Shown here: piece after piece, positions 1,163 to 37,663 of the stretch
How positions within the stretch are numbered: position 1 is the stretch's first letter
Layout: every line of letters begins with the position of its first letter
Source of the DNA: an uncultured virus (IMG/VR IMGVR_UViG_2061766007_001450)
Lineage: Duplodnaviria; Heunggongvirae; Uroviricota; Caudoviricetes
Virus record (IMG/VR): IMGVR_UViG_2061766007_001450
Direction: 5' to 3' (one strand)
DNA length: 37,703 nt
Program-made: the position numbers and the translations under genes
Notes under the pieces: generated by a model
Told to the model about the DNA's origin: nothing
The model's input: only the letters and a program-made list of their open reading frames with translations
Databases searched by the model: none

Positions 1163-1194
1163 TTTGTTTTTCACGTGAAACATTATTATTTTTG
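1163..1194 (+). promoter_or_regulatory. Bacteroidota sigma-A promoter of the structural operon, with a parS-like site in the spacer
   Basis: TTTG 1163-1166, 20-nt spacer containing TTTTTCACGTGAAACA, TATTTTTG 1187-1194. Confidence 0.7.
1167..1182. promoter_or_regulatory. parS: parS-like palindrome
   Basis: TTTTTCACGTGAAACA, 15/16 to TGTTTCACGTGAAACA. Confidence 0.75.
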
Positions 1195-1257
1195 CCGCCA
1201 ACGACGGCAAAGGGTGAGCCGCTGCAAATCAAATGTTTAACTAATACACGGTAAATC

Positions 1258-1912
1258 ATGTTAACTTGTCCTTGTCCAGCAGCTCCATCTTTACCCGAAA
1301 TCCCGTGCGTAAAGTGTGCAGAAAGGCTGGGTCAGATACAAAAAGTTGCGTTTCAGCGGTTGACAGCCGACAACGGTCAGCGCAACAAATTCAGCACCAC
1401 GTCGGGCTTTGACACAATCGAATCCTTGGCGAACTGGCAGGCAGCAATGGCATCCGCCAACAGCACAAAAATTGTTTTGTCGCCCTACATTTACAGCCCC
1501 ACCCAGGAATCGGGCGCACCGCGCACATTTGGCGGCGGCAACGACGGCTTGGGCGGCATCGAGGAAATTATCGGGCGTGAGCCATCCGCATTTACGGGCA
1601 GCTTGCGAAACATTCCGCAATCCGTGGCAAAAATTTTGAAAACTTTGCAGTGCGAGAGCGAGGCGGGCAATTTGGGTGTGTACCTTATTGACGAGAACGG
1701 CAATGTTGAGGCGTTAGGCATCACCGACGCTGACGACAACGACTACATCTACCCCATTCCGATAAGGTCGTTTTTTGTCGGCGACAAAGTACACGGCGGG
1801 CTTGACAACCCCNNNNNNNNNNNNNNNNNNNNNNNNNNNNGACCTCAAAATTTTCACGATTACGGACTTTAACCCGTTGACCGACCTTTGCAATGTCGGC
1901 AGCAGCAGCTAA
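1258..1912 (+). CDS. Major structural protein, probable tail tube protein (frame shifted only by the N gap at 1813-1840)
   Basis: Cys-rich N-terminus, GQIQKVAFQR, SPYIYSPTQESGA.RTFGGGN. After the gap it reads DLKIFTITDFNPLTDLCNVGSSS*, colinear with the paralog at 26630-28081. Resembles a major virion protein of B40-8-like phages (recall, unverified). Confidence 0.65.
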
Positions 1913-1924
1913 ACAACAAACATC

Positions 1925-2149
1925 ATGGCAATGGCAAAAAAAACCACGGTAACGTTACAGACAAAGGACGGCAAGATGTGCCGCGAGTTTGAAATCGCCC
2001 ACGCCGAAAATTTGTTGCAGTTCACGAACTCGCAATGGACGCTACCTCCAAACTCTCAATTTGTTTACAAAGATGGCAGTATCAGTAGAAAAAGCACAAA
2101 AGGCGGTAAAAGAGGCTTGGAACAAAACGACGGTAAGCAGAGCAATTGA
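1925..2149 (+). CDS. Small hypothetical protein overlapping the portal start
   Basis: 74-aa ORF with an A-rich leader right after the tube gene stop. Confidence 0.55.
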   Translation: MAMAKKTTVTLQTKDGKMCREFEIAHAENLLQFTNSQWTLPPNSQFVYKDGSISRKSTKGGKRGLEQNDGKQSN

Positions 2150-3764
2150 GCATCAAAACCGTTTGAAGTTCCACGTTGAAAAGACTATGGCGGCGCGTTA
2201 CGGCAAACCGCTGACGGACTTTTTGTCTTTTGTCTCCAACTTGATACCCCACGACAAATACAAAATGTTTGAAACAATTTTCCGTTACCCCGTCAAAACA
2301 AACGAGGTAACGGGAATTTGTTTTAACAAATTGAGCCGTATTTTTGACGGGCGAAACGCTGCATTTAACTATCAATTTCAATCAACGGAACTTCGCGAGG
2401 ATTGGGAGAGATACAGAAAAGAAGTGTTGCACGAACCCGAAGTGTGGAAAGATAAAGGCTGGGAGTATTTTAAGACCGAGCCAAACGCCGTTTTAATCGT
2501 GGACGTGCCGAGGGTGCAGGAGACCGAACGTCCCGCGCCTTACTTTTATTGGCTGTCAGTGTGCAACGTCCTGGCATACGAAAACAAGGCGGACGGCAAC
2601 TTTGATTTTATTGCATTTCGCAGCGGGGAGGATACAATCACCGTAATAGACGACGAGTCGTACCGAGTTTTTCAGAATGACAAAGACACACTCGGCGCGT
2701 TGATTGTGGAAAGCCCTCACACACTCGGGTATTGCCCCGCGAAGTTCTTTGTCTCGGCTCCAATCAGCATCGACGACCCCGATGTTAAAGCGTCGCCACT
2801 CTCAACAGAGTTGGAAAGCCTTGATTGGTATTTGTTTTTTCACCTTAGCAAACGCCATTTGGATTTATACGCTGCATATCCGATTTACAGCGGTTACGAG
2901 CAGTCGTGTAATTTCTCAAATGCCGAAAACGGTGATTATTGCGACGGCGGGTTCTTGCGAGACCGCCAAGGATATTACAAGTTGGACAACAACGGCTTGA
3001 TAATGCGCTGCCCTAAGTGTGGGGACAAACGCATTGCGGGCGTTGGTTCTTTTGTCGAGGTGCCAATCCCCACAGAGGGACAACCCGACCTAAGAAACCC
3101 CGTCCAGATGTTGACCGTGGATCGTGACAGTCTCGACTACAATGTAGGAGAGGAAAAGCGACTCCGCGAGGATATAATAACCGCCGTTTGCGGCACGTCC
3201 GAGGACGTACAGAGGAAAACGGCAATCAACGAGCAGCAGGTTGCGGCGAACTTTGAAAGCCAAACAACCGCCTTGAAAGAGGTAAAAAAACAGTTTGAAA
3301 TTGCGCAAACGTTTGTTGACGCGACAATATGCCGCCTACGTTACGGCGACGATTTTATTTCTGCATCCATCAATTACGGCACGGAGTTTTTTATATACGA
3401 CGTTGCCGAGTTGCGCGAGCGTTACAAAACCGCCAAGGAGAGCGGCGCAAGCGTCGCAGAGTTGGACGCATTGCAGCAACAAATAATTGAGACTGAATAC
3501 AGACACGACCCGACGCAATTACAAAGAATGTTGCTTTTGTCGGAGTTGGAGCCGTTCAGACACTTGACCACAACAGAGGTTGCAGAACTACACCGAGAGG
3601 GCGCAATTTCGGACGAGGATTTTGCACTAAAATTGAACTTTACGTCGTTAATAAGACGTTTTGAGCGCGAAAACATCAATATCCTTGATTTTGGCGAGCA
3701 AATGAAATACCCCGCCAAAATTCAAAAGATACACGATACTATTGTTAACTACTTAAAAAATTAA
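2073..3764 (+). CDS. Portal protein
   Basis: About 563 aa from ATG 2073, helical, upstream of scaffold and capsid; internal Cys cluster (CDGG...RCPKCG). Confidence 0.7.
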   Translation: MAVSVEKAQKAVKEAWNKTTVSRAIEHQNRLKFHVEKTMAARYGKPLTDFLSFVSNLIPHDKYKMFETIFRYPVKTNEVTGICFNKLSRIFDGRNAAFNYQFQSTELREDWERYRKEVLHEPEVWKDKGWEYFKTEPNAVLIVDVPRVQETERPAPYFYWLSVCNVLAYENKADGNFDFIAFRSGEDTITVIDDESYRVFQNDKDTLGALIVESPHTLGYCPAKFFVSAPISIDDPDVKASPLSTELESLDWYLFFHLSKRHLDLYAAYPIYSGYEQSCNFSNAENGDYCDGGFLRDRQGYYKLDNNGLIMRCPKCGDKRIAGVGSFVEVPIPTEGQPDLRNPVQMLTVDRDSLDYNVGEEKRLREDIITAVCGTSEDVQRKTAINEQQVAANFESQTTALKEVKKQFEIAQTFVDATICRLRYGDDFISASINYGTEFFIYDVAELRERYKTAKESGASVAELDALQQQIIETEYRHDPTQLQRMLLLSELEPFRHLTTTEVAELHREGAISDEDFALKLNFTSLIRRFERENINILDFGEQMKYPAKIQKIHDTIVNYLKN

Positions 3765-3768
3765 TGCT

Positions 3769-4221: not shown

Positions 4222-4224
4222 AAT

Positions 4225-5151
4225 ATGTTAACAACTGACTTCATAAAAAACAACATTCCCGACCTCAACGACGAGGTGGTGGGCAAAATTGCGGCACTCT
4301 CGCAGGCCGACGAGGACAAGGTTATTGGCGCGAAATTTTCCGACTTGTACCAGCGTCTCGACAGCACAATCGAGAAATCAACGGGCATCAAGCGGGACGG
4401 AGACGAAAAAACATACAATTACCTCGAAAGAGCCGCAAAAGCAATCAAGGAGACAGCCGACAATTCCGCAAAGGAAATTGAGAGGCTGACGGCGGAAAAT
4501 GCGAAGTTGCAAAAAGCCATTGCAGACGGCGCGAACGACGTAGAGACAAAGAACAAATTGCAGCAAGCGGAAAAAGACCTCGCAGCAATTCGCGACCAAT
4601 ACACCGCGTTGAAAACGGAGTACGACGGAGCGCAAGACAAGTTCAAGAAAGACTTGTTTAACGTGCAGATTGAAAACGGCGTACAATCGGCGTTTAGCGG
4701 TGTTAAGTTCAAAGAAACATTGTCAACGGCGGTTGTCGATTTGGCAAAGAAAACCGTTCTTGAAAAAATCAAGGCGGCGAACCCCGACACCGTGGACGAC
4801 GGCAACGGCGGCAAGGCGATTGTCTTTAAAGACAAAGACGGCGCAATTATGCGCAACCCCGACAACAGCCTCGCCCCCTACACGGTCGGCGAACTTGTAG
4901 CAAAGGAATTGTCAGCCCTCGGCGTTTTGGCGCAAAAGCGCACCCAGACGGGCAGCGGCGGCAATGGCGGCAATGGCGGCGGCAATCCAACAGTTATCGA
5001 CGTGTCAAGCGCAAAGACCCAGACAGAGGCTTACGACATTATAGCAAATGCGCTATTTGCCAAGGGTCTGACCAACGGCAGCCGAGAATTTGACGAGGAG
5101 ATGCAAAAGGCGTGGAAGACAAACAATGTTGCAAAGTTGCCGCAGCGTTAA
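4225..5151 (+). CDS. Capsid scaffolding protein
   Basis: Coiled-coil core, Gly-rich linker (GSGGNGGNGGG), short C-terminal domain, immediately before the capsid gene. Confidence 0.7.
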   Translation: MLTTDFIKNNIPDLNDEVVGKIAALSQADEDKVIGAKFSDLYQRLDSTIEKSTGIKRDGDEKTYNYLERAAKAIKETADNSAKEIERLTAENAKLQKAIADGANDVETKNKLQQAEKDLAAIRDQYTALKTEYDGAQDKFKKDLFNVQIENGVQSAFSGVKFKETLSTAVVDLAKKTVLEKIKAANPDTVDDGNGGKAIVFKDKDGAIMRNPDNSLAPYTVGELVAKELSALGVLAQKRTQTGSGGNGGNGGGNPTVIDVSSAKTQTEAYDIIANALFAKGLTNGSREFDEEMQKAWKTNNVAKLPQR

Positions 5152-5167
5152 TGTTTCACGCGAAACA
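5152..5167. promoter_or_regulatory. parS: parS-like palindrome
   Basis: TGTTTCACGCGAAACA, 15/16, abutting the scaffold stop codon. Confidence 0.7.
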
Positions 5168-5221
5168 ACGACAATAAACGGGCAAAGGGTGAGCCACAAT
5201 TAACTTCATAAAAATAAAGAT

Positions 5222-6348: not shown

Positions 6349-6389
6349 GGGGGGGTGGGACAAGCGGTAACGCCCCCACCCCTTTTTTT
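6349..6389 (+). terminator. Rho-independent terminator after the capsid gene
   Basis: GGGGTGGG...CCCACCCC stem followed by T7. Confidence 0.75.
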
Positions 6390-6404
6390 ATTTCACGTGA
6401 AACA
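6389..6404. promoter_or_regulatory. parS: parS-like palindrome
   Basis: TATTTCACGTGAAACA, between the terminator and the next ATG (6413). Confidence 0.75.
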
Positions 6405-7750: not shown

Positions 7751-7766
7751 AATTTCACGTGAAACA
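7751..7766. promoter_or_regulatory. parS: parS-like palindrome
   Basis: AATTTCACGTGAAACA fills the gap between stop 7747 and ATG 7767. Confidence 0.75.
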
Positions 7767-8771: not shown

Positions 8772-9037
8772 ATGCTTGTTTATTTGTTTGTAACAGCCGC
8801 CGTCGCGCTTGCGGCGGCGNNNNNNNNNNNNNNNNNNNNNNNNNNNNNNAGTGGGGCATAATTGAGTGGTTGCAGGTACACGGCAACGACTTAATAAGCA
8901 AAATGGCGAATTGTGATTTTTGCCTTTCGTGGTGGACGTGCCTTGTTGTCGCTACCGTGGCGGCAATCCTGGCACAAGACCCGCTTTGCATCTTGACGGC
9001 GGTAATGGCAACACCATTAACGCGCAAATTGCAATAA
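8772..9037 (+). CDS. Small membrane protein, DUF1360-like (spans gap)
   Basis: Hydrophobic start MLVYLFVTAAVALAAA; CDFCLSWW (CxxCxxxW) followed by TM segments. Confidence 0.55.
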
Positions 9038-9051
9038 TTTCACGTGAAACA
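9036..9051. promoter_or_regulatory. parS: parS-like palindrome
   Basis: AATTTCACGTGAAACA overlapping the stop at 9037. Confidence 0.75.
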
Positions 9052-11044: not shown

Positions 11045-14000
11045 ATGGAAAGTCCCAACCCTATTAAATATAGCGATTTAATCAAACCCGACAACAGCAT
11101 CTCCGATTTAATTAAGCAATTGGAGACGCTGCAACAAGTGTATGCAGACACCGCAAAAAAATTGAGGGAAGAGGCGTTGCAGGTTTCGGCAAGCATCAAG
11201 AACGTGTCGGGCGCGACCGAGGACGGGCGCAAGGCTATAAACGACGCGGCGGCGGCAACTGAAAGACTGACAGCAGAGGAGAAAAAAGTGACGGCAGCCG
11301 AGGAGAAAAACGCAAAGGAGCTTGCACGGCTGAAACTTGCACAACAAGAGCAAAACAAAATCGAAAAGTTATCCGCAAAATTAGCCAATTCGACTGCGGG
11401 AAGCTATAACGCGCTCTCCGCTCAATATGCGTTAAACAAAATCCGTATTAACGCAATGAGCCAAGCCGAGAGAGATGCAGCCGAGAAATCCGAGCAGCTT
11501 ATCAGCAAGACAAACGCACTTTACGAGGCTATGAAAAAGATGCAAGCCGAAACGGGTATGCACCAACTAAACGTCGGCAACTACAAAAGCGCGTTGGACG
11601 GTCTCGGAAAGGTTATGCAGGGCGTATCGGGCAGCGCGTCACAATTGGCGGGCAGCCTTGGCGTCGGCGGTTTGGGCGGTTCTTTGTCTGGACTGGCGGC
11701 GGGCGCGGGACCAATGGGGCTTGCCGTTGCAGCCGTCGCAGGTTTCACCACCGCAATGGTGAGCGGCATAGACACGGCGCGAGAATACAACAAGGCGGTG
11801 TCTGTATTGCAGTCAATCACGGGCAGCACCGCAGACGGCTTAAAGGAGCTTACAGAGCAAGCGAGGAGTTTGGGCGCAACTACCACCTACACCGCCACCG
11901 AGGTAATACAATTGCAGACAGAGCTGGCAAAACTCGGTTACACACAAGGCGACATTAAGAACATGACCGACAGCGTGCTTTATTTTGCGCAAGCCACGGG
12001 CGCAAGTTTGGCGGAGGCGTCGTCAATGACGGGCGCGGCGTTGCGTATGTTCCAGAGAGACACGACCGATACACAAGAATTTGTTGACAAGTTGGCAGCA
12101 TCCACGACGAAGTCCGCCTTGTCGTTTTCGTACCTTGACACGGCGTTAAGCATCGTCTCCCCCGTTGCAAATGCCTTTGGTTTCCAGATAGAAGATGTTT
12201 TGGCACTTTTGGGACAATTAGCCAATGCAGGTTTTGACGCATCGTCGGCGGCGACGGCAACAAGAAACATTCTTTTAAATTTGGCAGATGCCAACGGCGA
12301 CCTTGCAAAGAGCATAGGACACCCCGTCAAGAATTTGGACGAGCTGGTCGCAGGGTTGCAACAACTTGATGCCGAGGGAATAGACCTTGCAAAATCTTTG
12401 GAATTATCTGACAAACGCTCCGTTGCAGCGTTCAATACATTTTTGAAAGGTGCGGGCGACGTTTTGGAACTAAGGGACGCTTTGAACGATACCAACGGCA
12501 CGGCACAAGAAATGTCCCAAATTATGGGGGACAATCTCGAAGGCGACATCAAGAGCCTTGGCAGTGCCTGGGACGACTTTATGTTGGAAATTAACGACGG
12601 GCAAGGCATATTGCGAGGTATCGTTCAATGGCTCACGATGGTTATCCGCGAAATCGCATCGACGTACAAAGAACTGAAAGCATACTTTACAGACCTTTGG
12701 AACACATCAGAGGACTTCCGCACTACGATGGCGGCATTGTGGGTAGTGCTTTACAAAGGTGCGAATGACTTTTGGGATATTCTCAAAATGCTCACAAAGA
12801 CGGCGTGGGGATTGGGCGAAATTCTTTACGGCGCGTTTACGCTTGATTGGGGCAAAATCAAAGACGGTTGGAACACTGTCATTGATGGCATTGCAGATGG
12901 TTTTGCAAGTATGCAGGAAACGGCAAAAAAAGCCGCCAAAGATGCAGGCGAAATGATTGAGAATGTACACCCGACAATCACGGCGGATGTAAAAGTCGAG
13001 GGCGTAACAGACAAACAGACAGAAACGACCGGCACGGGACAAGGCGAGGGCAGCGGCAAACAGAAAAACATCGTCAAACTTAACGGCAAGGAGTACGACC
13101 TTGAAATCGAAGAAGAAAAAGAAGATTATGAAAAAGCCCTCAAAAAATATCAAGAGGCGCAAAAGAAACTTGCCGACGAGCGAGAAAAAGCGCAGCGGAA
13201 AGCCGAGCAAGACGCAGAAAAGGCGTATCGTGCCGAACTGTCAGCAAGGCGCAGCGCGGAAGATGCTCAACTTGCCTTGATTGAGGATAGTTGGCAGCAA
13301 AAGACAATCAAAACCAATTTACAATACAGCCGTCAAATTGAGGATTTAAAGCACACGTTGGAAACTCAAAAGGATTTGACGGAAGATGCGCGTGAAAGTA
13401 TCAACGCCACCATTGCGGCATTGGAGCAGCAGCAGACCCGCGAATTAATCAAGATAGAGGAGGAGAGGTATGCAAAGGAGTTGGAGATGCAGAAGGCGGC
13501 AATAGAAATGAAGTTAAAAACGGTTGCAGCAGGCAGCGAGGAAGAAAAACAATTATTGATGCAGCAATTGGATGTTTCACGTGAAATCGCACTTTTGAAA
13601 GCCAAAACAGACGAGGAGCGAGCCGATATAAACAAGTCGTTTGATGTCCAAAAGGGCGGCATCGCGGATAAGTATTTGCAGCAGCAATTGGCGATTTTCG
13701 ACCAACAGCAAGATTTGACGCAATCGGAATTTGATTTATTGCGCAATTCCGAGCAGAAAAAAACATTATTCAAGTTGCAAGCCGAAAAAGCAAGATGGGA
13801 AAAAGTGTTGGCATTAAACGAGCAAGCCAACACAAAAATGTCGGATGCGGAAGTNNNNNNNNNNCTCGGTGAAATTCTCTACGGTGCTTTTACGCTTGAT
13901 TGGGGCAAAATCAAGGACGGTTGGAACACCGTCATTGATGGCATTGCAGACGGTTTCGCAAGTATGCAAGAAACGGCAGAAAAGGCCGCCAAAGATGCAG

Positions 14001-15410
14001 GCGAAATGATTGAGAATGTACACCCGACAATCACGGCGACCGTTGATGTAGAGGGCGCACCGTCGCCGTCGCCTAAGCCAGGGCAAGGTGAGGGCAGCGG
14101 CAAGCAAAAAAACATCGTCAGACTTAACGGCAAGGAGTATGACCTTGAAATCGAAGAAGAAAAAGAAGATTACGAAAAAGCCCTCAAAAAATATCAAGAG
14201 GCACAAAAGAAACTTGCCGACGAGCGCGAAAAGGCACAGCGAAAAGCCGAGCAAGATGCAGAAAAGGCGTACCGTGCCGAACTGTCAGCAAGGCGCAGCG
14301 CGGAAGATGCGCAACTTGCATTGATTGAGGATAGTTGGCAGCAAAAGACAATCAAAACCAATTTACAATATAGCCGTCAAATTGAGGATTTAAAGCATAC
14401 ATTGGAAACTCAAAAGGATTTGACGGAAGATGCACGTGAAAGCATCAACGCCACCATTGCGGCATTGGAGCAGCAGCAAACAAACGCTTTGATCAAGATT
14501 GAGGAAGAGCGTTATGCAAAAGAGTTGGAACTGCAAAAGGCTGCAATCGAAATGAAGTTAAAAACAGTTGCGGCGGGCAGCGAGGAAGAAAAACAATTGT
14601 TGATGCAGCAATTGGATGTTTCACGTGAAATTGCATTGCTTAAAGCCAAGACAGACGAGGAAAAAGCCGACATTAACAAGGCTTTTGACATTCAAAAGGG
14701 CGGCATTGCGGACAAGTATTTGCAGCAGCAATTAGCGATTTTCGACGAGCAACAAAGTTTGGCGCAATCGGAATTTGATTTATTGCGCAGTTCCGAGCAG
14801 CGCAAAACATTATTCAAGTTGCAAGCCGAAAAAGCAAGGTGGGAAAAGGTGTTGGCATTAAACGAGCAAGCCAACACAAAAATGTCGGATGCGGAAGTNN
14901 NNNNNNNNTTGATTTGTTGAGAAATTCCGAGCAGAAAAAAACATTATTCAAATTACAAGCCGAAAAAGCAAGATGGCAAAAAGTGTTGGAACTTAACGAG
15001 CAAGCCAACACCAAAATGTCAGATGCGGAAGTGCAGACAATCAAAAACACCATTGCGAAGATTGAGCAGGAGATGGACGCAGCCGGACGTAGTGGCGATA
15101 TTTACGATTTGGTTGGCTTAAATCTTGACAGCGACCAAAAGGGCGCAATACAATCATCAATGGACTTTGCAACGGAGCAACTTAACGCCTATATGGAAAG
15201 TTATGTGGCAGCGGCAGACGCGAAAGTAAATGCAGCCGCAAAAGAAGTTGACAGCGCACAAAAGGCACTTGACAAAGAAATCGAATTGCGCGACAAAGGC
15301 TATGCGAATGACGTTGCAACGGCGCAAAAGGAACTCGATATGGCGAAAGCCAATCAGGAGAAAGCGCAGCGCGAGCAAGAAAAAGCGCAGAAACGGCAAG
15401 CCGCCATTCA
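11045..15410 (+). CDS. Tape measure protein (TP901-type core), N-terminal and middle parts, with a duplicated allele segment at 13865-14898
   Basis: LTEQARSLGATTTYTATEV..., MGDNLEGDIKSLGSAWDDF motifs and long Ala/Glu/Lys coiled coils; 13865-14898 repeats about 12812-13854. Confidence 0.9.
13573..13588. promoter_or_regulatory. parS: parS-like palindrome inside TMP (DVSREI)
   Basis: TGTTTCACGTGAAATC. Confidence 0.7.
14617..14632. promoter_or_regulatory. parS: parS-like palindrome inside the TMP second allele
   Basis: TGTTTCACGTGAAATT; allele of the site at 13573. Confidence 0.7.
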
Positions 15411-24553: not shown

Positions 24554-25379
24554 NNNNNNNNNNNNNNNNNNNNNNNNNNNNNNNNNNNNNNNNNNNNNNN
24601 NNNNNNNNNNNNNNNNNNNNNNNNNNNNNNNNNNNNNNNNNNNNNNNNNNNNNNNNNNNNNNNNNNNNNNNNNNNNNNNNNNNNNNNNNNNNNNNNNNNN
24701 NNNNNNNNNNNNNNNNNNNNNNNNNNNNNNNNNNNNNNNNNNNNNNNNNNNNNNNNNNNNNNNNNNNNNNNNNNNNNNNNNNNNNNNNNNNNNNNNNNNN
24801 NNNNNNNNNNNNNNNNNNNNNNNNNNNNNNNNNNNNNNNNNNNNNNNNNNNNNNNNNNNNNNNNNNNNNNNNNNNNNNNNNNNNNNNNNNNNNNNNNNNN
24901 NNNNNNNNNNNNNNNNNNNNNNNNNNNNNNNNNNNNNNNNNNNNNNNNNNNNNNNNNNNNNNNNNNNNNNNNNNNNNNNNNNNNNNNNNNNNNNNNNNNN
25001 NNNNNNNNNNNNNNNNNNNNNNNNNNNNNNNNNNNNNNNNNNNNNNNNNNNNNNNNNNNNNNNNNNNNNNNNNNNNNNNNNNNNNNNNNNNNNNNNNNNN
25101 NNNNNNNNNNNNNNNNNNNNNNNNNNNNNNNNNNNNNNNNNNNNNNNNNNNNNNNNNNNNNNNNNNNNNNNNNNNNNNNNNNNNNNNNNNNNNNNNNNNN
25201 NNNNNNNNNNNNNNNNNNNNNNNNNNNNNNNNNNNNNNNNNNNNNNNNNNNNNNNNNNNNNNNNNNNNNNNNNNNNNNNNNNNNNNNNNNNNNNNNNNNN
25301 NNNNNNNNNNNNNNNNNNNNNNNNNNNNNNNNNNNNNNNNNNNNNNNNNNNNNNNNNNNNNNNNNNNNNNNNNNNNNNN

Positions 25380-25785
25380 CCCAGCCCTCGACCCCGACAG
25401 CGTGAACCCCGTGGAAAATCGCGCAGTATATGCCGAATGTCAGACAATACGCGCTTTGATTGATGATATTCCGACAGCGCAACCTATCACGAGTACGTAT
25501 CTAAGCACGGCGCAGGCAAACGCCATAACGGGCGAAACCTACGTTGGCAAAACCATTCTCAATTTTTCTGCAACGATAAGTGGTGTTGATGCTATTATAG
25601 TGACAGGCGCAAAACAAGTCGGCACAGCAGGCAGTGGAAAACTTTACGTGTATGGTACTGGCTTAACTGGGCAACATACGGTTGAACGAATAGTGTACGA
25701 GGTGTCGGGCGGTAACACTTTGGGAGATGTTATCGGCGTAAATGTCGGCATTGACAACGGCGCATTAATAGTATATGCAGAATGA
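25380..25785 (+). CDS. Tail fibre/baseplate protein C-terminus (diverged allele of 22421-23155)
   Basis: LDPDSVNPVENRA motif and same ATGA coupling to the glycosyltransferase gene. Confidence 0.65.
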
Positions 25786-26561
25786 TAGCAGAAGTATTGC
25801 TTATCAAGGATGAGAACCGCTATTTGTTGGAGCATTTGGTGTGCAATGCAGCGGCGGGCATCGACCATTTTTTCATCTATGATAATATGAGTCGCGTCCC
25901 CGTTGCCGACTTTTTGCGCGAAAACGCCCGTGATTTTCTGAATATTTGCACCGTGCAAAGGTATCATTCCAACAATAATCTCCAACTTGATTGCTATGCA
26001 GATTATTTGAGGGAACACCGCCACGTCGATTGGACTGTGTTTTACGATACGGACGAGTGTTTCACGGGAAACATTCGTGATGCGGTGGCGGAGTTCGGTG
26101 GCAATTATAATTGTCTGTCATTCTCTCCGATATTGCACGGCTGCAACGGACATTTGCAGCGTCAGAGGGGCGGCACGATGCAAGAACTATATGGCGCCGA
26201 CATTCTAAGTCGTGCGCACCATTGGTATAAGGTATGCGCAAAGACGGCGGACATAACGTCCCAATACATCCACAATAACGCAATGGTTAATAAACGCTTG
26301 ATATATTTGACCGCAGACAAATATCCATCTTGCGTTTTGCATCATTACAGATTTCGGAGTTTTGAAGATTATTTATTGAAATTCCAACGAGGCAGGGCTA
26401 ACATAACTAAAAAAGGCTGTTGGGTTCCGCACATCAGCGATTTTTTTGCACTTCACAAAAACATAAGACCCGACGACCCCGAAGTCGTGGCATTAATGCA
26501 GAAATACGGCGTGAATTTGGGGACGGCGCAAAAACATTTTGATGTATATCCCTCGAACTAA
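25782..26561 (+). CDS. GT-A fold glycosyltransferase (GT92/GT2-like), allele B
   Basis: Complete 259-aa ORF; KDENRYLLEHL, GIDHFFIYDNMS, DTDE, LHHYRFRSFED. Confidence 0.8.
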   Translation: MIAEVLLIKDENRYLLEHLVCNAAAGIDHFFIYDNMSRVPVADFLRENARDFLNICTVQRYHSNNNLQLDCYADYLREHRHVDWTVFYDTDECFTGNIRDAVAEFGGNYNCLSFSPILHGCNGHLQRQRGGTMQELYGADILSRAHHWYKVCAKTADITSQYIHNNAMVNKRLIYLTADKYPSCVLHHYRFRSFEDYLLKFQRGRANITKKGCWVPHISDFFALHKNIRPDDPEVVALMQKYGVNLGTAQKHFDVYPSN

Positions 26562-26613: not shown

Positions 26614-26629
26614 TGTTGCACGTGAAACA
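26614..26629. promoter_or_regulatory. parS: parS-like palindrome
   Basis: TGTTGCACGTGAAACA matches TGTTNCACGTGAAACA exactly; abuts the stop of the minus-strand LRR gene. Confidence 0.8.
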
Positions 26630-28081
26630 TTACGCTTGTGTGAAATAACCAGGCGTTCCGGCGCGGTCAATTCGTGCGTAGGTTGCATCAGTGTGGTTGG
26701 AATTATAATGCGTGCCGTTGCCGCCGACAAGAGAGGTGCAGCCGGCGAACATATTTCCGTCATCTTCTGTCAATGACAAATCCCAATCTCCGCCGTAGAT
26801 GGTAGTTAGTTGTGTGCAGCCAGCGAACATTTGCGCTATCGCTGTAACATTTGCGGTGTTGAAGTTGGAGAGGTCAAGCGTTATAAGCGCCTTGCATCCG
26901 CCGAACATTGCATACATTGTCGTAACATTTGCGGTGTTGAAGTTGGAGAGGTCAAGTGTTGTAAGCGCATTGCATCCGCCGAACATACTCTCCATTGATG
27001 TAACATTCGCTGTGTTGAAGTTGGAAAGGTTAATTGTTGTAAGCGCCTTGCATCCGCCGAACATTGCATACATTGTCGTAACATTTGCGGTGTTGAAGTT
27101 GGAGAGGTCAATCGTTTGCAACGCAGCGCAGCCGTTAAACATCGCGACCATTGATGTTACATTAGAAGTGTTGAAGTTGGAGAGGTCAAGCGTTGTAAGC
27201 GCATTGCATCCGACGAACATTGCTTGACAGACATCAGGCGCGTACATATCCGCGTCTGATAAAAATAAAATTTTTGTGCCATCTCGCCATATTTCAATCA
27301 AATTATCGTCATCAAGATAACCTACCATATTGTAGCCTGATGTAGAATGTTGCGACTTGTAGCCAAACACGCACGATGTCGTAGTGGTTAGAACGTAATT
27401 GCGAATGACGGAAACACTTGGGATATAAGCCCTTTGCGTAATGCAAAGGTCTGAAAGTACATTGAACGTATCAATGGTAAATATTTTTATGTAGTCGCTA
27501 TAATTCGGCACAAATGACCATTGAATTACATTCGCGTCCGGTGCATCAATGCCGCCGTGTGTCTTGTCGCCGACAAAAAACGCCTTGATGTGTATCGGCA
27601 TTATCCATTCGTTGTTGTTTTCGTCAACAATGCCAAGTGCCTCTACGTTGCCGTTGCCATCTATCAGATAGACACCAACATTTTCGCACTGCAAAGATTT
27701 TAACACCTTTGCGATTGATTGTGGCACATTGCGCAATGATGCGGAGAATGTGGACGACTCACGCCCTATAATTTCCTCAACGCCGTTTAAACTGTCATTG
27801 CCGCCACCAAAAGTACGCGCCGCTCCGCTCTCCTGCGTGGGGCTGTAAATATAAGGCGATAAAACAATTTTTGTGCTGTCGGCGGCTGTCATTTTAGCCT
27901 GCCAATTTGCCAGACTGTTTATTTCAGAAAATCCCGACGTGGCGGAAAATTTATTTTTCGTGCCGTCATCGTTCATAATTCGCTGAAACGCCACCTTTTG
28001 TATTTGCCCGAAACGTTCAGAGCATCTGACACATTCCAAGTCGGGCAGCGATGCAGGTGGGGGACAATTACAAGTTATCAT
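26630..28081 (-). CDS. Tail-tube-like paralog fused to a DUF285/BspA-like LRR domain
   Basis: Starts MITCNCPPPASLPDLECVRC; first ~215 aa colinear with 1258-1912; last 266 aa homologous to the LRR module at 21556-22356. Confidence 0.8.
   Translation of the reverse strand: MITCNCPPPASLPDLECVRCSERFGQIQKVAFQRIMNDDGTKNKFSATSGFSEINSLANWQAKMTAADSTKIVLSPYIYSPTQESGAARTFGGGNDSLNGVEEIIGRESSTFSASLRNVPQSIAKVLKSLQCENVGVYLIDGNGNVEALGIVDENNNEWIMPIHIKAFFVGDKTHGGIDAPDANVIQWSFVPNYSDYIKIFTIDTFNVLSDLCITQRAYIPSVSVIRNYVLTTTTSCVFGYKSQHSTSGYNMVGYLDDDNLIEIWRDGTKILFLSDADMYAPDVCQAMFVGCNALTTLDLSNFNTSNVTSMVAMFNGCAALQTIDLSNFNTANVTTMYAMFGGCKALTTINLSNFNTANVTSMESMFGGCNALTTLDLSNFNTANVTTMYAMFGGCKALITLDLSNFNTANVTAIAQMFAGCTQLTTIYGGDWDLSLTEDDGNMFAGCTSLVGGNGTHYNSNHTDATYARIDRAGTPGYFTQA
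26810..27199 (-). repeat. Five 78-bp coding LRR repeats
   Basis: GTAACATTTGCGGTGTTGAAGTTGGAGAGGTCAA recurring at 78-nt period. Confidence 0.85.
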
Positions 28082-28137
28082 TTTAAAACGAATTTTATTA
28101 AAAAATGCACTGACCGGCTGACCCTTTGCCGATTGCG

Positions 28138-28169
28138 CAAATGTAACAAAAATTTTCACGTGAAACAAA
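28138..28169 (-). promoter_or_regulatory. Bacteroidota sigma-A promoter with a parS-like site across the spacer
   Basis: Minus strand reads TTTG-TTTCACGTGAAAATTTTTGT(20 nt)-TACATTTG. Confidence 0.7.
28152..28167. promoter_or_regulatory. parS: parS-like palindrome
   Basis: ATTTTCACGTGAAACA. Confidence 0.75.
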
Positions 28170-28336
28170 TGTTTTGCAGTGTTTTTTGTTGTTTTTCAGA
28201 CATTTTGCACCCTACAATCACCCTACAATCGCCCTTTGTAGGATGTTTTTATTTTGCTGATTTTCAGATGTTTAAATTGTCCAATCCTACACGTCCAAAA
28301 AATATTAAATATTTTAACAACTATTAACATAAATAA

Positions 28337-28368
28337 TTTGCACCATACAAAAATTATATGTAATTTTG
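28337..28368 (+). promoter_or_regulatory. Early promoter (Bacteroidota sigma-A type)
   Basis: TTTG-CACCATACAAAAATTATATG-TAATTTTG. Confidence 0.8.
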
Positions 28369-28419
28369 TATCGTAATCAAAAAAACAAAATATGTCAAAC
28401 ACTTAAAAACACAAAGAAA

Positions 28420-29777
28420 ATGGCACATAATCTCGAAATCATCAACGGCGTAGCAAGTTTTGCAGAAAACGGACTCAAAGAAACCGCTTGGCACGGCTTG
28501 GGTCAAGTATTTGACGGCGAAATGGATGTTGCAACCGCACTTGCAGCAAGCCACGCCGACTTCACAGTTGCAAAGACCCCCGTTTACTATCAGAGCAAAA
28601 ACGGCGGATTTGCAGCGAACCCCGAATTTTTCCACATCATCAGAGAGGACAATGGCGCACCACTCGGACTTGTCAAGAAGTCTTACGGCGTAGTACAAAA
28701 TGCTGATGCCTTTGAATTTGTCAACGGTCTTTGCACCGGCGGCAATTCCAAAGAGCCGTTCATCGAATGTGCGGGCGTACTTGGCAAGGGCGAGCGCGTT
28801 TTCATCACCGCAAAGTTTCCCGAGCGTTTCCAAGTTGGCGATGCTTTTGGCGACGATGCAGAAATGTATGCCGTAATTACAACGAGCCACGATGGCTCGG
28901 GTGCGGTAACTGTAATGCTCACCCCGATAAGGGTTGTATGCAACAACACGTTGCAGGCTGCAATGGGACACAATTACAGCAAATTCTGTTTCCGCCACAC
29001 TTCCAACGTCAAGTTGAGAATGAAAGAAAATATGTTGCACGTTGCTAAGACGCTCGGCTGTTTCGATGCAACAAAAAAGGCGGTCATCGAACATACCAAG
29101 CAACTCAATGCAATCAAGGTTGACGAAAAAACGGTCAAGTTTGTTTGCGGTCGCGTTGCTTTTGGTGACAAATACCCGATTTTTGAAAATAACGGTTTCG
29201 ACATTGACGAACTCGGTATGCGCAACATCAATGTTTACTACGACCTCCGCGAGAGCGTAGAAAATGGCATCGGTCAAGACTTGTTTAAAAGCAAGTCGNN
29301 NNNNNNNNTCACACCTCCAACGTCAAGTTGAGAATGAAAGAAAATATGTTGCACGTCGCAAAGACCCTCGGATGTTTCGAGGCGACAAAAAAGGCAGTCA
29401 TCGAACACACCAAACAACTCAATGCAATCAAGGTTGACGAAAAGACCGTGAAATTCGTTTGCGGTAGAGTCGCATTTGGCGACAAATACCCGATTTTTGA
29501 AAACAACGGTTTCGATATTGACGAACTCGGTATGCGCAATATCAATATTTACTACGACCTCCGCGAGAGTGTAGAAAATGGCATCGGTCAAGACTTGTTT
29601 AAGAGCAAGTCGGGCAACTGGCTTTTCAACGGCATCACAAACTACTTCCAAAATGTCAAGACCTACACGACCAAAGGCGAGTATGATGCAGAAAAGAAAT
29701 TCGACAACATCATCAACGGCGGCACAGCCCACGCCAAAATAATGAGGGCTTACACTGACATCTTGATGGCAGCGTAA
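28420..29777 (+). CDS. DUF932 / TIGR03299 phage-plasmid-like protein (two overlapping allele fragments across gap 29299-29308)
   Basis: MAHNLE..ETAWHGLG, Y.VVQNADAFEF, TTSHDGSGA, TPIRVVCNNTL signature motifs. Confidence 0.85.
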
Positions 29778-29828: not shown

Positions 29829-29873
29829 ATACTACAAAAAATGCAATTTCTTAACGTTTATTAACGTTAAAAA

Positions 29874-29905
29874 TTTGCACGTTACAAAAATTAATTGTAA
29901 TTTTG
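29874..29905 (+). promoter_or_regulatory. Early promoter
   Basis: TTTG-CACGTTACAAAAATTAATTG-TAATTTTG. Confidence 0.8.
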
Positions 29906-29951
29906 TATCATAGAAATAAAGAAAAACACTAACCAATAAAACGCAAAGAAA

Positions 29952-30600: not shown

Positions 30601-30616
30601 TGTTTCACGTAAAACT
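30601..30616. promoter_or_regulatory. parS: parS-like palindrome (degenerate)
   Basis: TGTTTCACGTAAAACT directly after the stop. Confidence 0.6.
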
Positions 30617-30625: not shown

Positions 30626-30808
30626 ATGAAAAACTTACTTGCAATCATTGTTGGCGCAATCATTTTCTTTGTATGCGCCACCCACCTTGTCCCGAGCCAC
30701 GAACCCGCAAGCATCTTGCAGTGGTGGACGTATGGAATGTTCGGCGGCCTTGGCTTAGCCGCCGCCGGAGTCTATGGACTGAAAAAAGACAGCGACAATG
30801 AGAATTAA
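30626..30808 (+). CDS. Small two-TM membrane protein
   Basis: 60 aa with two hydrophobic segments. Confidence 0.6.
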   Translation: MKNLLAIIVGAIIFFVCATHLVPSHEPASILQWWTYGMFGGLGLAAAGVYGLKKDSDNEN

Positions 30809-30827
30809 CAAAAATTAACGCTACAAA

Positions 30828-30859
30828 TTTGCATAATAATAAAATTATATGTAAATTTG
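30828..30859 (+). promoter_or_regulatory. Early promoter
   Basis: TTTG-CATAATAATAAAATTATATG-TAAATTTG. Confidence 0.75.
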
Positions 30860-30894
30860 TGGCGTTAAAATAAAACATCAAAATCAATCAGCAA

Positions 30895-31155
30895 ATGAAA
30901 AAGATAAAAGAAATATTAAAGTCGATGCCGCGTGAAAAGGAGATGGAAGCACGCGAGAAAATCGGTGTTGCTATGTGGCCGAAAGCCACACCCTTGCAAC
31001 GTTGCATCAACTTGCAGAATATTATGACCGGCAGGACAATGCGCATCACCCCCGACGGCATCAAGATAATTGCATCAATCCTCGGTGTAACCCCAAATGA
31101 TATATTGGAGTGGGACGGCGAGAATGTTGCGCGCGAAACAGTTAAAACGGCTTAA
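30895..31155 (+). CDS. XRE/Cro-like HTH protein
   Basis: C-terminal IKIIASILGVTPNDILEW pattern typical of XRE-family HTH proteins. Confidence 0.6.
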   Translation: MKKIKEILKSMPREKEMEAREKIGVAMWPKATPLQRCINLQNIMTGRTMRITPDGIKIIASILGVTPNDILEWDGENVARETVKTA

Positions 31156-32285: not shown

Positions 32286-32371
32286 ATTTTATATCTAAAC
32301 ATTTAAAAATCAGTACCTTACAAATTTTAACAATAAAAGTGCATTTTATTAACGTTTATTAACGCAAAATA

Positions 32372-32403
32372 TTTGCACCATACAAAAATTAATTGTAATT
32401 TTG
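32372..32403 (+). promoter_or_regulatory. Early promoter
   Basis: TTTG-CACCATACAAAAATTAATTG-TAATTTTG. Confidence 0.8.
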
Positions 32404-32448
32404 TAGTGTAATAAAAAACAAAACACTAACACATAAAACACAAAGAAA

Positions 32449-32718: not shown

Positions 32719-32905
32719 TAATAACCACGGCGGCGCGATAGCATCAAGCCGCCACAAAACACAAAGAANNNNNNNNNNNNNNNNNNNNNNNNNNNNNNNN
32801 NNNNNNNNNNNNNNNNNNNNNNNNNNNNNNNNNNNNNNNNNNNNNNNNNNNNNNNNNNNNNNNNNNNNNNNNNNNNNNNNNNNNNNNNNNNNNNNNNNNN
32901 NNNNN

Positions 32906-33736
32906 CGCAAAAATTTTGGCAGCAAAAGCCAAAATTGGCAAAATATCGAAAGACGGCAGCGCGGTTGTCGAAAAGACAAGCGGAAAAACAATTCAATACG
33001 CCACACTTCCGCAAGTGTTGGGCGCGGTCGTGCCGGTATTGGCAGAGTTGGGGCTTGACTATGTAGTCGCCCCCGTATGGAGCGAGACCGCCGTACAGTT
33101 GATGGCTCAAAATATGCGTATGTTCTCAATTCATTTCATTGACGTTGAGAGCGGCGAGCAGTCCGAGCCGATTGTCTATCCGTTCCGTATGGCTAACAAC
33201 TACGAGGCAATCAAAGGCGATGGCTCGACAATCACCTACGCAACAAGGTATTTGCTTGGATTGGCACTCGGTTTGCAGACCGAGGAAGACCCCGACAATC
33301 GTTTTCCCGAGCGCAAAGGCGGCAACAATCAGCAGCAACGCNNNNNNNNNNATACGCTACAAGGTATTTGCTTGGATTGGCCTTGGGCTTACAGACAGAG
33401 GAAGACCCCGACAATCGTTTCCCCGAGCGCAAAGGCGGCAACAATCAGCAGCAACGCGCCAACAATCAGCAACCGCAGCAACCGCAGCAGCCGAAAAAGC
33501 AAAGGACGTTCCGCGAGTGTGTAAATGGCTTTTACGCCACTTACAACAAAGGCGATTTGGACGGAGCAAGGCGCACCCTTGATTTTGTCCGCAAAAATTG
33601 GGGACGCGCCGAGGAGTGCGCGGCGGAAATCGCCGCAATGGAAAAACTTGATTTGACCGTATGGCAGCCGACCACGCAGTCCGACGCACCGCAGCAATCA
33701 ACACCCACGGACGCTAACAACACCGCGCCATTCTAA
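32906..33736 (+). CDS. erf: ERF-family single-strand annealing protein (start in gap; short duplicated allele across gap 33342-33351)
   Basis: YATLPQVL..V.PVL...GL and GSTITYATRY.L...LGL.TEEDPD ERF motifs; Gln-rich linker; C-terminal APF. Confidence 0.8.
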
Positions 33737-33790: not shown

Positions 33791-33806
33791 TGTTTCACGT
33801 GAAAAA
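33791..33806. promoter_or_regulatory. parS: parS-like palindrome
   Basis: TGTTTCACGTGAAAAA between a hairpin and ATG 33816. Confidence 0.75.
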
Positions 33807-34998: not shown

Positions 34999-35531
34999 NN
35001 NNNNNNNNNNNNNNNNNNNNNNNNNNNNNNNNNNNNNNNNNNNNNNNNNNNNNNNNNNNNNNNNNNNNNNNNNNNNNNNNNNNNNNNNNNNNNNNNNNNN
35101 NNNNNNNNNNNNNNNNNNNNNNNNNNNNNNNNNNNNNNNNNNNNNNNNNNNNNNNNNNNNNNNNNNNNNNNNNNNNNNNNNNNNNNNNNNNNNNNNNNNN
35201 NNNNNNNNNNNNNNNNNNNNNNNNNNNNNNNNNNNNNNNNNNNNNNNNNNNNNNNNNNNNNNNNNNNNNNNNNNNNNNNNNNNNNNNNNNNNNNNNNNNN
35301 NNNNNNNNNNNNNNNNNNNNNNNNNNNNNNNNNNNNNNNNNNNNNNNNNNNNNNNNNNNNNNNNNNNNNNNNNNNNNNNNNNNNNNNNNNNNNNNNNNNN
35401 NNNNNNNNNNNNNNNNNNNNNNNNNNNNNNNNNNNNNNNNNNNNNNNNNNNNNNNNNNNNNNNNNNNNNNNNNNNNNNNNNNNNNNNNNNNNNNNNNNNN
35501 NNNNNNNNNNNNNNNNNNNNNNNNNNNNNNN

Positions 35532-36039: not shown

Positions 36040-36055
36040 TGTTTCACGTAAAACA
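36040..36055. promoter_or_regulatory. parS: parS-like palindrome
   Basis: TGTTTCACGTAAAACA, 15/16, 10 nt before ATG 36066. Confidence 0.7.
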
Positions 36056-36065
36056 TCAATCGAAA

Positions 36066-36946
36066 ATGGAAACGGCATTTGCAAATATAAACATCAAGGC
36101 ACTTACAACGGTGCAGCCCGAGCAACCGCCCCGACAGTCGGCGGTGACAATCGCGCTGCAAAAGTTGGCGGACACCAACACCGCGCCGTTGAGCAATGTT
36201 GATGCCTTGATACTGACGGCTGCAAAAAATGCAACCATCGGAGAGATGCAGCCAACGGAAATCGCCGCATCCGTTAATCAATGTTTCCGATTTATAAGCA
36301 TTGATGTTGGGTACAAGCGANNNNNNNNNNGGTGCGCTTGGCGGACGTTCTTAAACGTCACTTTTACGACCTTACTATTGAGGACGTGAAAACAGCATTT
36401 GAATTACTGACAGTTGGCGACCTCGACAATTATTTGCCGACAAACAGCAGCGGAGAGCCTGACCGCAGTCACTATCAAAATCTCAATGCCGAGTATCTTT
36501 GCAAAGTGTTGAGGGCGTACAAAAAAAGGCGCGATGTTGCATATACCAACATCAAGGCAGCGCAGCCGAAACCGCAAAAGGCATTACCGCCGCAACCGAC
36601 CAAAACACCCGCAGAAAAAACGCGGGAATGTTACGACACTTACAAGGCAACAGGCAAACTTGTTTTTGTCATTCCGCCCGACGATGTAACGATTGCCAAC
36701 TTTTTGACAGAAAAAGGATTGATGGCGGCGGTAGTCGTAACAGATGCAGATAAAGAAAAAGCATTTGGAATTTATAAGGCGGAAAATGAACTCGGATTGC
36801 ATAACGACTATGCCGCCCGTTGGATTATCAGAGCGGGCAAAGATGCGCGAGAAATTCAACCAAAGGCGTATAAGTTAGCGTTAAATCGTTGCATCAAGGC
36901 GGCGTTTGACGGATTTGTTTCACGTGAAAAAACGAAAAATCAATGA
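36066..36946 (+). CDS. Hypothetical replication-region protein (spans gap 36321-36330; start duplicated at 35726-35772)
   Basis: METAFANINIKALTTV... continuing as RLADVLKRHFYDLTIEDVKTAFEL. Confidence 0.6.
36916..36931. promoter_or_regulatory. parS: parS-like palindrome in gene 3' end (FVSREK)
   Basis: TGTTTCACGTGAAAAA. Confidence 0.7.
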
Positions 36947-37647
36947 TACCGAAAACACTTCATTATATGTGGTTTGGCGGCAAACAAATGCCGTCAATAT
37001 GCAAAGAATGTATTGAAAGTTGGCACAAAGTATTGTCGGCTGATTGGTTATTCCAATTTTGGAATGAAGATAATTACGACATCGAAACAAAAAACAACTT
37101 TGTTTTGCAGGCGTATAGCAGCGGAAATTACGCTTTTGTTTCAGATTACGCACGTTGGGACATTTTGCACCGTCAAGGCGGTGTGTATGTAGATACCGAT
37201 GTTTTTATGTTAAAAGACATCACGCCACTTTTGCAGCATAAGGCGTTTGGAGGCCGCAACGGTCTCGGGCTATTCGCGTCGGGATTGATTTTAGGTGCAG
37301 AGCCTAATTTGCCGATATTCGCAGAAATGAAAGCGGAATACAATAAGCGTAATTTTCTGACGAAAGACGGCAAGCCAACATACGTCACAAACATAATGGT
37401 CGAAAATGAATTGTTGACGCGCCACAACTTGAAGCCCGATTTGGAGATTGCGCAAACCGTTGCAGACATCACAATCTACCCGACCGATTATTTTTGCCCA
37501 TTCTCTCCGGCAGATGGTACGCTGAAAACAACGGCAAACACATACGCGATACATCAGTTCACGGGTACGTGGATACCCGAGGGGCGCAAGGCGGCACAAG
37601 CGAAAGCCAATCCGAAATTGGCGGAGCATTACAAAAGAGTCAAATAA
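36943..37647 (+). CDS. GT32 / OCH1-like DXD glycosyltransferase
   Basis: MIPKTLHYMWFGG, WNEDN, YAFVSDYAR..IL...GGVYVDTDV, YFCP, TYAIHQFTGTW signature motifs. Confidence 0.9.
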   Translation: MIPKTLHYMWFGGKQMPSICKECIESWHKVLSADWLFQFWNEDNYDIETKNNFVLQAYSSGNYAFVSDYARWDILHRQGGVYVDTDVFMLKDITPLLQHKAFGGRNGLGLFASGLILGAEPNLPIFAEMKAEYNKRNFLTKDGKPTYVTNIMVENELLTRHNLKPDLEIAQTVADITIYPTDYFCPFSPADGTLKTTANTYAIHQFTGTWIPEGRKAAQAKANPKLAEHYKRVK

Positions 37648-37663
37648 TGTTTCACGTAAAACT
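37648..37663. promoter_or_regulatory. parS: parS-like palindrome (degenerate)
   Basis: TGTTTCACGTAAAACT between stop 37647 and next ATG 37671. Confidence 0.6.

Follow-up and report, generated by a model that had tools for sequence, protein, structure and literature searches.

Dispersed chromosomal-type parS words in a clade of uncultured Bacteroidota siphoviruses: candidate binding sites for host ParB

The DNA analysed here, called the window, is a stretch of 37,703 nucleotides from an uncultured tailed virus (IMG/VR record IMGVR_UViG_2061766007_001450), and the element in question is a dispersed 16-bp palindromic word resembling parS, the site bound by chromosomal ParB. We took as a site any 16-mer with at most two mismatches from TGTTTCACGTGAAACA, the core 12-mer of which is TTTCACGTGAAA. 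The window carries 22 such sites, 10 with one mismatch and 12 with two, plus two 16-mers with three mismatches, where about none is expected. The core itself occurs in 15 exact and seven one-base-off copies, against a chance expectation of 0.28 core matches (at most one mismatch); none of 100 dinucleotide shuffles reached 22, 20 mononucleotide shuffles gave no 16-mer within two mismatches, and the enrichment of the word is about 100-fold. A first-pass annotation of this DNA had listed 21 start coordinates, every one of which proved to be a genuine 16-mer one or two mismatches away from TGTTTCACGTGAAACA; its 15 exact cores stood, but its six one-base-off copies became seven, the seventh (core at 26060) belonging to an additional site at 26058. 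The consensus of the phage sites is identical to chromosomal parS at 16/16 positions. Livny et al. reportedly gave that chromosomal word in 2007 as TGTTNCACGTGAAACA, and all 22 window sites lie within two mismatches of it. This threshold is the usual working definition of parS, as stated in a passage of PMC10197239.

The window is a scaffold of 37.7 kb interrupted by 25 N runs (for example 14899-14908, 17086-17095, 29299-29308 and 33342-33351). Many direct repeats, 86-95% identical, lie across 10-N joins and represent strain variants placed head to tail; since the sites at 13573/14617, 15854/18066 and 20834/22357 fall in such scaffold repeats, about 19 distinct loci remain, which bears out the earlier remark that a few sites are strain-allele duplicates. 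Four long stretches are masked (19664-20400, 24554-25379, 32769-32905 and 34999-35531), and the long 'open reading frames' (ORFs) running across them are artefacts. About 10 kb of the phage genome (~48 kb in total) falls outside the window. We mapped this gap against the 32-kb relative G003, where it holds terminase, lysis, single-stranded DNA-binding protein (SSB) and methyltransferase genes; the genomes of the clade are seen as partial contigs, none of them whole.

PHROG and Pfam scans of the window ORFs identify a tailed phage, with a portal gene at 1989-3764, scaffold and capsid proteins, a tape measure, tail-fibre and leucine-rich repeat (LRR) proteins, and an early module at 28.3-37.7 kb that encodes DUF932, exonuclease, Erf and replication initiator proteins. 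The same scans of the window and of G003 found no integrase, and no tRNAs were found. Cultured Bacteroidota siphoviruses (B40-8, B124-14, PDS1, Alistipes AS73P1 and Flavobacterium phages) have portals 50-61% identical to this one; like the portal, the capsid and tape-measure proteins resemble those of Bacteroidota siphoviruses and not those of the protein-primed podoviruses of the phi29 lineage. The predicted promoters of the window follow a pattern which we take to be of the Bacteroidota type. Window DNA is present in bovine gut metagenome runs of several studies. We found no cultured member of the clade, the best terminase match being 55% identical and DNA searches returning only weak matches to Alistipes phages.

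Though plus-strand ORFs cover 85% of the window, 16 of the 22 sites lie outside ORFs, in short intergenic gaps; seven begin 0-3 nt past a stop codon and seven end 0-16 nt ahead of the next ATG. Directly past a stop stand TGTTTCACGCGAAACA (5152-5167, one mismatch), which follows the ORF 4225-5151 and precedes the capsid-type gene at 5222 by 54 nt; TGTTTCACGTGTAACA (22357-22372, one mismatch; stop 22356), first of a tandem pair whose second member, TGTTTCACGTGAAAAA (22379-22394, one mismatch), is 26 nt before the ATG at 22421; and two copies of TGTTTCACGTAAAACT (two mismatches), one at 30601-30616 (stop 30600), 9 nt before an ATG and present in the same imperfect form in six relatives, the other at 37648-37663 (stop 37647). 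AATTTCACGTGAAACA (two mismatches) occurs at 7751-7766, 3 nt past the stop at 7747 and abutting the ATG at 7767, and again at 9036-9051, 16 nt before the ATG at 9068, while TTTTTCACGTGAAACG (17556-17571, two mismatches) occupies the whole interval that separates the stop at 17555 from the ATG at 17572. TGTTTCACGTGAAAAT (two mismatches) begins 3 nt past the stop at 20830 in its first copy (20834-20849) and is flanked by two N runs in its second (23912-23927). TATTTCACGTGAAACA (6389-6404, one mismatch) is 8 nt before the ATG at 6413, and TGTTTCACGTGAAAAA recurs, again with one mismatch, at 33791-33806 and 36916-36931, respectively 9 nt before the ATG at 33816 and 11 nt before that at 36943. TGTTGCACGTGAAACA (26614-26629, one mismatch) abuts the stop of the minus-strand gene 26630-28168, and TGTTTCACGTAAAACA (36040-36055, one mismatch) is identical in G003, L343 and L347.

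The intragenic sites all read in one frame, giving V-S-R-E. TGTTTCACGTGAAATC (13573-13588, two mismatches) lies in the tape-measure ORF 11045-14920, where it is read D-V-S-R-E-I, and TGTTTCACGTGAAATT (14617-14632, two mismatches) is its allelic scaffold duplicate, at a repeat spacing of 1044 nt. TGTTTCACGTGAAATT is also found, with two mismatches, in a phrog_19383-type ORF (15854-15869) and in the duplicate of that site at 18066-18081 (repeat spacing 2212 nt). The site missed earlier, TGTTTCACGGGAAACA (26058-26073, one mismatch), is in the glycosyltransferase ORF 25782-26561 and is identical in the relative L341. Finally, a decayed copy with three mismatches, TGTTGCGCGCGAAACA (31125-31140), has at its homologous place the one-mismatch TGTTGCACGTGAAACA in L338, L339, L341 and L343 and the perfect TGTTTCACGTGAAACA in L346. 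Sites are present in both the early and the late modules as well as within genes.

The position of many sites just upstream of start codons would suit a word acting in RNA, as a hairpin, a processing signal or a translation signal at cistron starts. This explanation is hardly credible. Indeed, six junction sites fold at only 0 to -6.6 kcal/mol, with z-scores of -1.2 to +1.4, a 12-bp palindrome leaves no loop, and sites are also found in coding sequence, within the spacers of promoters and next to a minus-strand gene. With no Rfam match in the window or in L084, and given the weak folds of the six junction sites, we rejected a role in RNA structure.

Two sites lie in the spacers of predicted promoters, both preceding phrog_8193-type genes: TTTTTCACGTGAAACA (1167-1182, one mismatch), within a host-type promoter at 1163-1194 (+) and 75 nt before the ATG at 1258, and ATTTTCACGTGAAACA (28152-28167, two mismatches), within a minus-strand promoter at 28138-28169 of a phrog_8193/LRR gene. 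The possibility that the sites are the main promoters was rejected as their general role, as four strong early promoters do not overlap parS-like sites; these four share a distinct conserved repeat, without the parS-like word. As an observation in its own right, the early promoters belong to a cassette of ~89 nt present in four copies (28300-28388, 29837-29925, 30791-30879 and 32335-32423) and made of two TTAAC-containing direct repeats followed by TTTGCA-N-TACAAAAATTA-N-TGTAATTTTG. Its promoter is of the host type, with a TTACAA/TTGTAA dyad in the spacer, and similar promoters occur in G003. The cassette, which differs from the parS-like word, likely provides the operators of a regulator that the phage itself encodes.

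In G003, a clean contig, the sites are spaced more evenly than random (coefficient of variation 0.62 vs 0.96, P=0.009), and the placement at gene boundaries may account for part of this evenness.

The mismatches are not scattered evenly over the word. On eight clade contigs we counted 81 sites, none perfect, 47 with one mismatch and 34 with two. A perfect 8-bp half is found in 75 of these 81, both mismatches fall within one half in 28 of the 34 two-mismatch sites, and the second half keeps 6-7 of its 8 positions. This 'one good half' architecture has no fixed direction, the perfect half being upstream in 15 window sites and downstream in six. The 16-mer scan of the window found no perfect site, as the first-pass annotation had said, and column shuffles led us to expect 3.5-4.2 perfect sites per genome vs 0 observed (P=0.007 and 0.0015). 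One perfect site, that of L346, is present among the 39 further sites on metagenome relatives. The affinity tuning that had been proposed from the missing perfect sites is an unneeded hypothesis: sequence space holds one perfect 16-mer vs 48 with one mismatch and 1080 with two, and the deficit is explained by mutation-selection balance under a saturating binding requirement, which predicts few perfect sites. We therefore make no case for perfect sites being selected against, the more so as one exists in L346.

The word recurs across a narrow clade and is absent from more distant relatives, which was the outcome of the motif-density scan that the first-pass annotation had proposed. In total, 120 sites are found on 20 clade contigs, 81 on the eight mentioned above and 39 on 12 metagenome contigs; the latter are 85-98% identical to the early region of the window and carry their sites at homologous places. 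Among the 80 portal relatives in IMG/VR, only the four closest (G001-G004, portal 65-67% identical) have the word, at the same density, and the remaining 76 have no sites, barring a lone single-mismatch core. G003 has 23 sites at up to three mismatches and 22 at up to two. Terminase relatives with the word are at least 93% identical and those without it at most 55%. Moreover, 115 loci (1.9 Mb) of more distant relatives yielded a single site within two mismatches, even with the C/G variant allowed, and the complete PDS1 genome (44.7 kb) yielded none. The DUF932 protein of the window has no close relatives in IMG/VR (best 36% identity), and 67 of the 68 corresponding loci are siteless, the other having a single site. 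The non-structural genes of the clade differ from those of its relatives. In a 14-mer scan of IMG/VR, the matches listed were mostly perfect 16-mers on unrelated contigs.

Within the clade the sites are kept. Site positions are 92.2% identical (696/755) vs 80.4% at other aligned positions (P=4e-19), and this comparison of aligned sequences indicates purifying selection on the sites. The type of defect at several homologous junctions differs between the window and G003, and the site persists. At the scaffold-capsid junction PDS1 keeps a neighbouring conserved element without the site, and the site therefore looks as if it had been inserted directly past the stop codon in the clade. An element GGCAAAGGGTGAGCC is found at 1206-1220 and 5181-5195 of the window and at 18135 of G003 (reverse-complement coordinates), and its PDS1 versions are GGGTAAAGGGTAAACCC and GGGCAAAGGGACAGCCC, at the junctions 25054-25178 and 29186-29244. 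Elements of this type are in the leaders of capsid-type and phrog_8193-type genes and are family-wide, occurring also in relatives without parS-like sites. They may represent a late-promoter or leader signal; the PDS1 annotation includes a sigma factor.

What could read these sites? Chromosomes of Bacteroidales, the predicted host order, bear the same word, so the comparison with host parS suggested in the first-pass annotation came out positive. In a sample of 121 Bacteroidales genomes, 112 carry 1-8 sites matching TGTTYCACGTGRAACA with at most one mismatch, vs about none for reversed-pattern controls. A perfect site is present in 83 of the 121, with both the T/A form, which is the one of the phage, and the C/G form represented, and one genome has a perfect site in the interval separating mnmG/gidA from the gene that follows. 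All five T/A-form genomes that we checked encode a ParB of 288-301 aa (ORF lengths) with an HTH_ParB domain (E ~1e-35), HTH standing for helix-turn-helix. The phage thus shares with chromosomal ParABS the same 16-bp word within two mismatches. The arrangement is different: chromosomes have 1-8 sites, often perfect and near origin-region genes, whereas the 22 sites of the window are not clustered near a replication origin and are dispersed over 37.7 kb, at about one per 1.5 kb, without parA or parB.

That neither parA nor parB is visible in the window, as had been claimed, is supported by Pfam scans of ORFs and by a six-frame search. The Pfam scan of the window and G003 ORFs gave no ParB or KorB domain, and a six-frame search of five clade records for HTH_ParB gave nothing even at E≤1. 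A profile built from the five host ParBs and run against all six frames of 20 clade sequences had no match in the window or in G003, its sole hits being to the N-terminal domain encoded by fusion genes of G004, L240, L241 and L242. On the clade contigs the sites are accompanied by no phage ParB with a DNA-binding domain. The tandem fusion genes (G004 880-3049, L082 210-2379; also in L240, L241 and L242) join ParB_N to an N6/N4 DNA methyltransferase (422 aa) and to a phosphoribosyltransferase-like protein (294 aa), and are followed by a minus-strand DprA/SLOG-like gene; this block is an insertion relative to G003, in which the flanking genes adjoin. The match to ParB_N covers residues ~22-89, its scores are below the Pfam cut-off in both fusions, and neither has an HTH.

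These fusion enzymes could themselves dock at the sites, either directly or paired with host ParB, and it is true that the contigs encoding them have them beside the terminase genes, each preceded by a site. Nevertheless, we consider such docking very unlikely as the function of the sites, since the fusions have the N-terminal domain only, lacking the parS-reading HTH, with ParB_N scores under the cut-off, and since G003 has 22-23 sites and no fusion genes.

Taken together, the word shared with Bacteroidales chromosomes that encode ParB, the failure to find a phage ParB HTH and the conservation of the sites lend partial support to the recruitment of host ParB that the first-pass annotation had put forward. 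Judging from these sequence comparisons, the sites are probably, though with modest confidence, binding sites for host chromosomal ParB. The idea has a direct precedent that the first-pass annotation did not mention, as phi29 is already known for this use. Meijer et al. are said to have reported in 2005 that the parS sites of phi29 are exploited through host Spo0J. According to portions of PMC2731898 and PMC9437464, phi29 has five parS sites and exploits Spo0J for entrapment in the spore. Our scan of its 19.3 kb recovered four TGTTTCACGTGGAACA copies (10445, 15903, 17243 and 18760), one of them directly past a stop codon. A full-text literature search found no Bacteroidota phage with parS sites; publications containing the 12-mer TTTCACGTGAAA, among the matches listed, concern nearly always chromosomal or plasmid parS.

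Like the clade, as far as its window and contigs are seen, phi29 has several dispersed copies of host-type parS and no ParB of its own. The two differ in that phi29 is a 19-kb protein-primed podovirus with 5 sites and the clade consists of ~48-kb siphoviruses of the B40-8/PDS1 family with ~25; moreover, the clade sites are almost never perfect, unlike those of phi29, and the host phylum forms no spores. An IMG/VR 16-mer scan with TGTTTCACGCGAAACA retrieved clade contigs plus other contigs with 3-5 dispersed sites. In the gut contigs L394, L370/L369, L418, L381, L372 and L363 these amount to 3-5 per ~10 kb, some perfect and some with one mismatch, and many of them at gene junctions; the three annotated contigs (L394, L370 and L418) are phi29-like podoviruses, with Phi29_MCP, Gp16 ATPase, type-B polymerase and connector genes. 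The CGCG variant of the clade thus accompanies perfect parS in the one lineage where the use of host ParB is documented. These contigs also suggest that many uncultured phi29 relatives follow the phi29 strategy. The system described here is probably best classed with phi29 as a use of host parS, with an independent origin in a Bacteroidota siphovirus and 4-5 times as many sites.

Several observations weigh against this interpretation. The gene-junction positions and the two promoter-spacer positions would equally suit a phage-encoded repressor, and the phage does encode small HTH proteins, a Cro-like one of 86 aa (30895-31155) and, in G003, a MerR-like one of 60 aa. The region that matches the ~10 kb missing from the window holds the ParB_N fusions in G004 and L240-L242. 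One or a few parS suffice for partition, and ~25 evenly spread sites thus suggest some further or other use. Since Bacteroidota form no spores, what phi29 gains does not transfer to them directly. Lastly, when 16.5 kb of G003 was compared with the DNA of 401 Bacteroidales genomes, no convincing spacer-like match appeared; there were only weak matches and two 30-nt matches at 93% identity, compatible with chance. Relatives of the portal that turned up in bacterial assemblies sit on free phage contigs of ~45 kb assigned to unrelated metagenome-assembled genomes.

The first of these objections leads to an alternative in which a DNA-binding protein of the phage uses the sites as operators, or 'stoperators', to control transcription across the genome, and their resemblance to parS arose by coincidence or convergence. 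Such an account would fit the 16 of 22 sites that are intergenic and hug stops and ATGs, the two in promoter spacers, and a motif confined to one clade with distinct non-structural genes; candidate HTH proteins exist, and ~10 kb of the phage lies outside the window. It is nonetheless unlikely. A chance match to all 8 positions of the parS half-site has a probability of ~4^-8, and the consensus would have to agree with parS at 16 of 16 positions by coincidence; searches of the clade contigs gave no ParB-type HTH, and the separate repeat of the early promoters is a better candidate for the target of the phage's own regulator. The occurrence of sites in the early as well as the late module and within coding sequence, whichever half is the perfect one, also speaks against it, as does the phi29 precedent.

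The stoperators of cluster A mycobacteriophages such as L5 are asymmetric sites in a single orientation, to which a repressor of the phage itself binds. The clade resembles L5 in having ~25 copies of a short word, in short intergenic gaps and in both early and late operons. By contrast, the word of the clade is a palindrome, the same as host parS, and its perfect half may be upstream or downstream. The domain scans identified no cognate phage repressor, giving only weak Cro-like and MerR-like HTH candidates, neither of them linked to the sites. Plasmid RK2, with KorB and its 12 OB operators, and phage N15, with its dispersed sop centromeres, each use their own ParB homologue and a private site. 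They are similar to the clade in carrying many dispersed palindromic sites on a mobile genome; while RK2 and N15 combine partition and transcription control through their own ParB homologue, the clade uses the chromosomal word, and no ParB with a DNA-reading domain was found in it.

If host ParB is the protein that binds, what would the phage gain? The most likely use, in our analysis, is to keep the phage genome in the cell without integration or to partition it, possibly along with a degree of silencing. We favour it because no integrase was found, because PDS1 coexists stably with its host and because the only known case is one of inheritance. Once the phage has entered, dimers of host ParB would bind the ~25 sites of the ~48-kb genome and gather the phage DNA into a ParB complex, which the host ParA/ParB machinery would position and pass to both daughter cells. 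A genome without integrase could in this way persist unintegrated in dividing, non-lysed cells, in parallel with the Spo0J route of phi29 into spores. More speculatively, ParB at the promoter-spacer and junction sites could dampen late-gene transcription during carriage.

The 'one good half' architecture has a counterpart in this respect. In the portion of PMC7022226 concerned, P. aeruginosa ParB is described as binding half-parS without long-range spreading and as able to repress adjacent promoters. The phage sites are similar in having one intact half (GTTTCAC), but they are fuller than the bare half-sites of P. aeruginosa, with 6-7/8 of the second half kept, and that case concerns another organism and context. 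The number of sites, their even spread, those in promoter spacers and this half-site binding and repression leave room for silencing, compaction or ParB titration. A fuller scenario would make host ParB a borrowed repressor and centromere protein at once, acting through ~25 half-damaged sites, in late-promoter spacers and at gene junctions all along an unintegrated genome, to give a phage that lacks repressor and integrase a silenced, heritable carrier state in non-sporulating gut Bacteroidota, with ParB_N fusions recruited in some strains; we regard it as fairly improbable.

Host ParB might also bind for a payoff other than inheritance. Its titration during replication could derail host chromosome segregation or SMC loading, or it could coat or compact the phage DNA or shield it from nucleases. 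The number and even spread of the sites, far above the needs of a centromere, are in favour of this, as is the fact that a burst of ~25-site genomes would outnumber the 1-8 host sites. Relatives in the family are lytic as well; PDS1 is so described in part of PMC12118408, which also has it coexisting stably with its host. We found no direct sequence evidence for any of these uses, and the sole documented phage case, phi29, concerns inheritance. Furthermore, ParB is non-essential in many bacteria (an excerpt of PMC7022226, Table 1), and its titration may thus gain the phage little. We deem a benefit of this sort rather unlikely, and retention with partition of the unintegrated genome remains our preferred use of host ParB.

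Long-term coexistence of lytic phages and gut Bacteroidales is well documented, but its explanation is still incomplete. Should host ParB bind these sites, hitch-hiking on the chromosome sorting of the host would not be peculiar to phi29 and spore formers; it would have an independent origin in an abundant lineage of cattle-gut phages, at a much higher site density. The sites would in addition provide a natural series of near-consensus parS variants, relating site quality to ParB binding and clamp loading, for which the culturable, siteless relative PDS1 is a ready negative control.

Other features of these genomes are described here on their own account. The palindrome TTGCGCAA has nine copies in the window vs 0.3 expected (3301, 5841, 10750, 11985, 13739, 16559, 27729, 28133 and 37448), most of them within long ORFs according to the ORF list. 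It is the top 8-bp palindrome in most of the examined relatives without the parS-like word, with 5-11 copies per ~20 kb. In G003 (L084 6900-8020, minus strand), a stretch of ~1.1 kb without ORFs leads from the terminase to the MerR-like gene. It contains two each of parS-like sites, host-type promoters and terminator-like hairpins, has no Rfam match and may encode an RNA of ~250 nt.

The window encodes three glycosyltransferases (23143-23859, 25782-26561 and 36943-37647), one of which is weakly similar to the Gly_transf_sug and TcdA/TcdB catalytic glycosyltransferase domains. G003 has, in addition, UDP-glucose dehydrogenase-like and radical SAM proteins (glycosyltransferase-set loci, L084 12360-13145 and 2271-3206), and together these proteins may form a glycan- or DNA-modification set. 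Finally, 78-nt tandem repeats in 4-5 copies, at 21795-22161 and 26737-27220, encode DUF285/BspA-type leucine-rich repeats. They sit in two tail-fibre-like genes on opposite strands, the minus-strand one being a phrog_8193 domain fused to the repeats.

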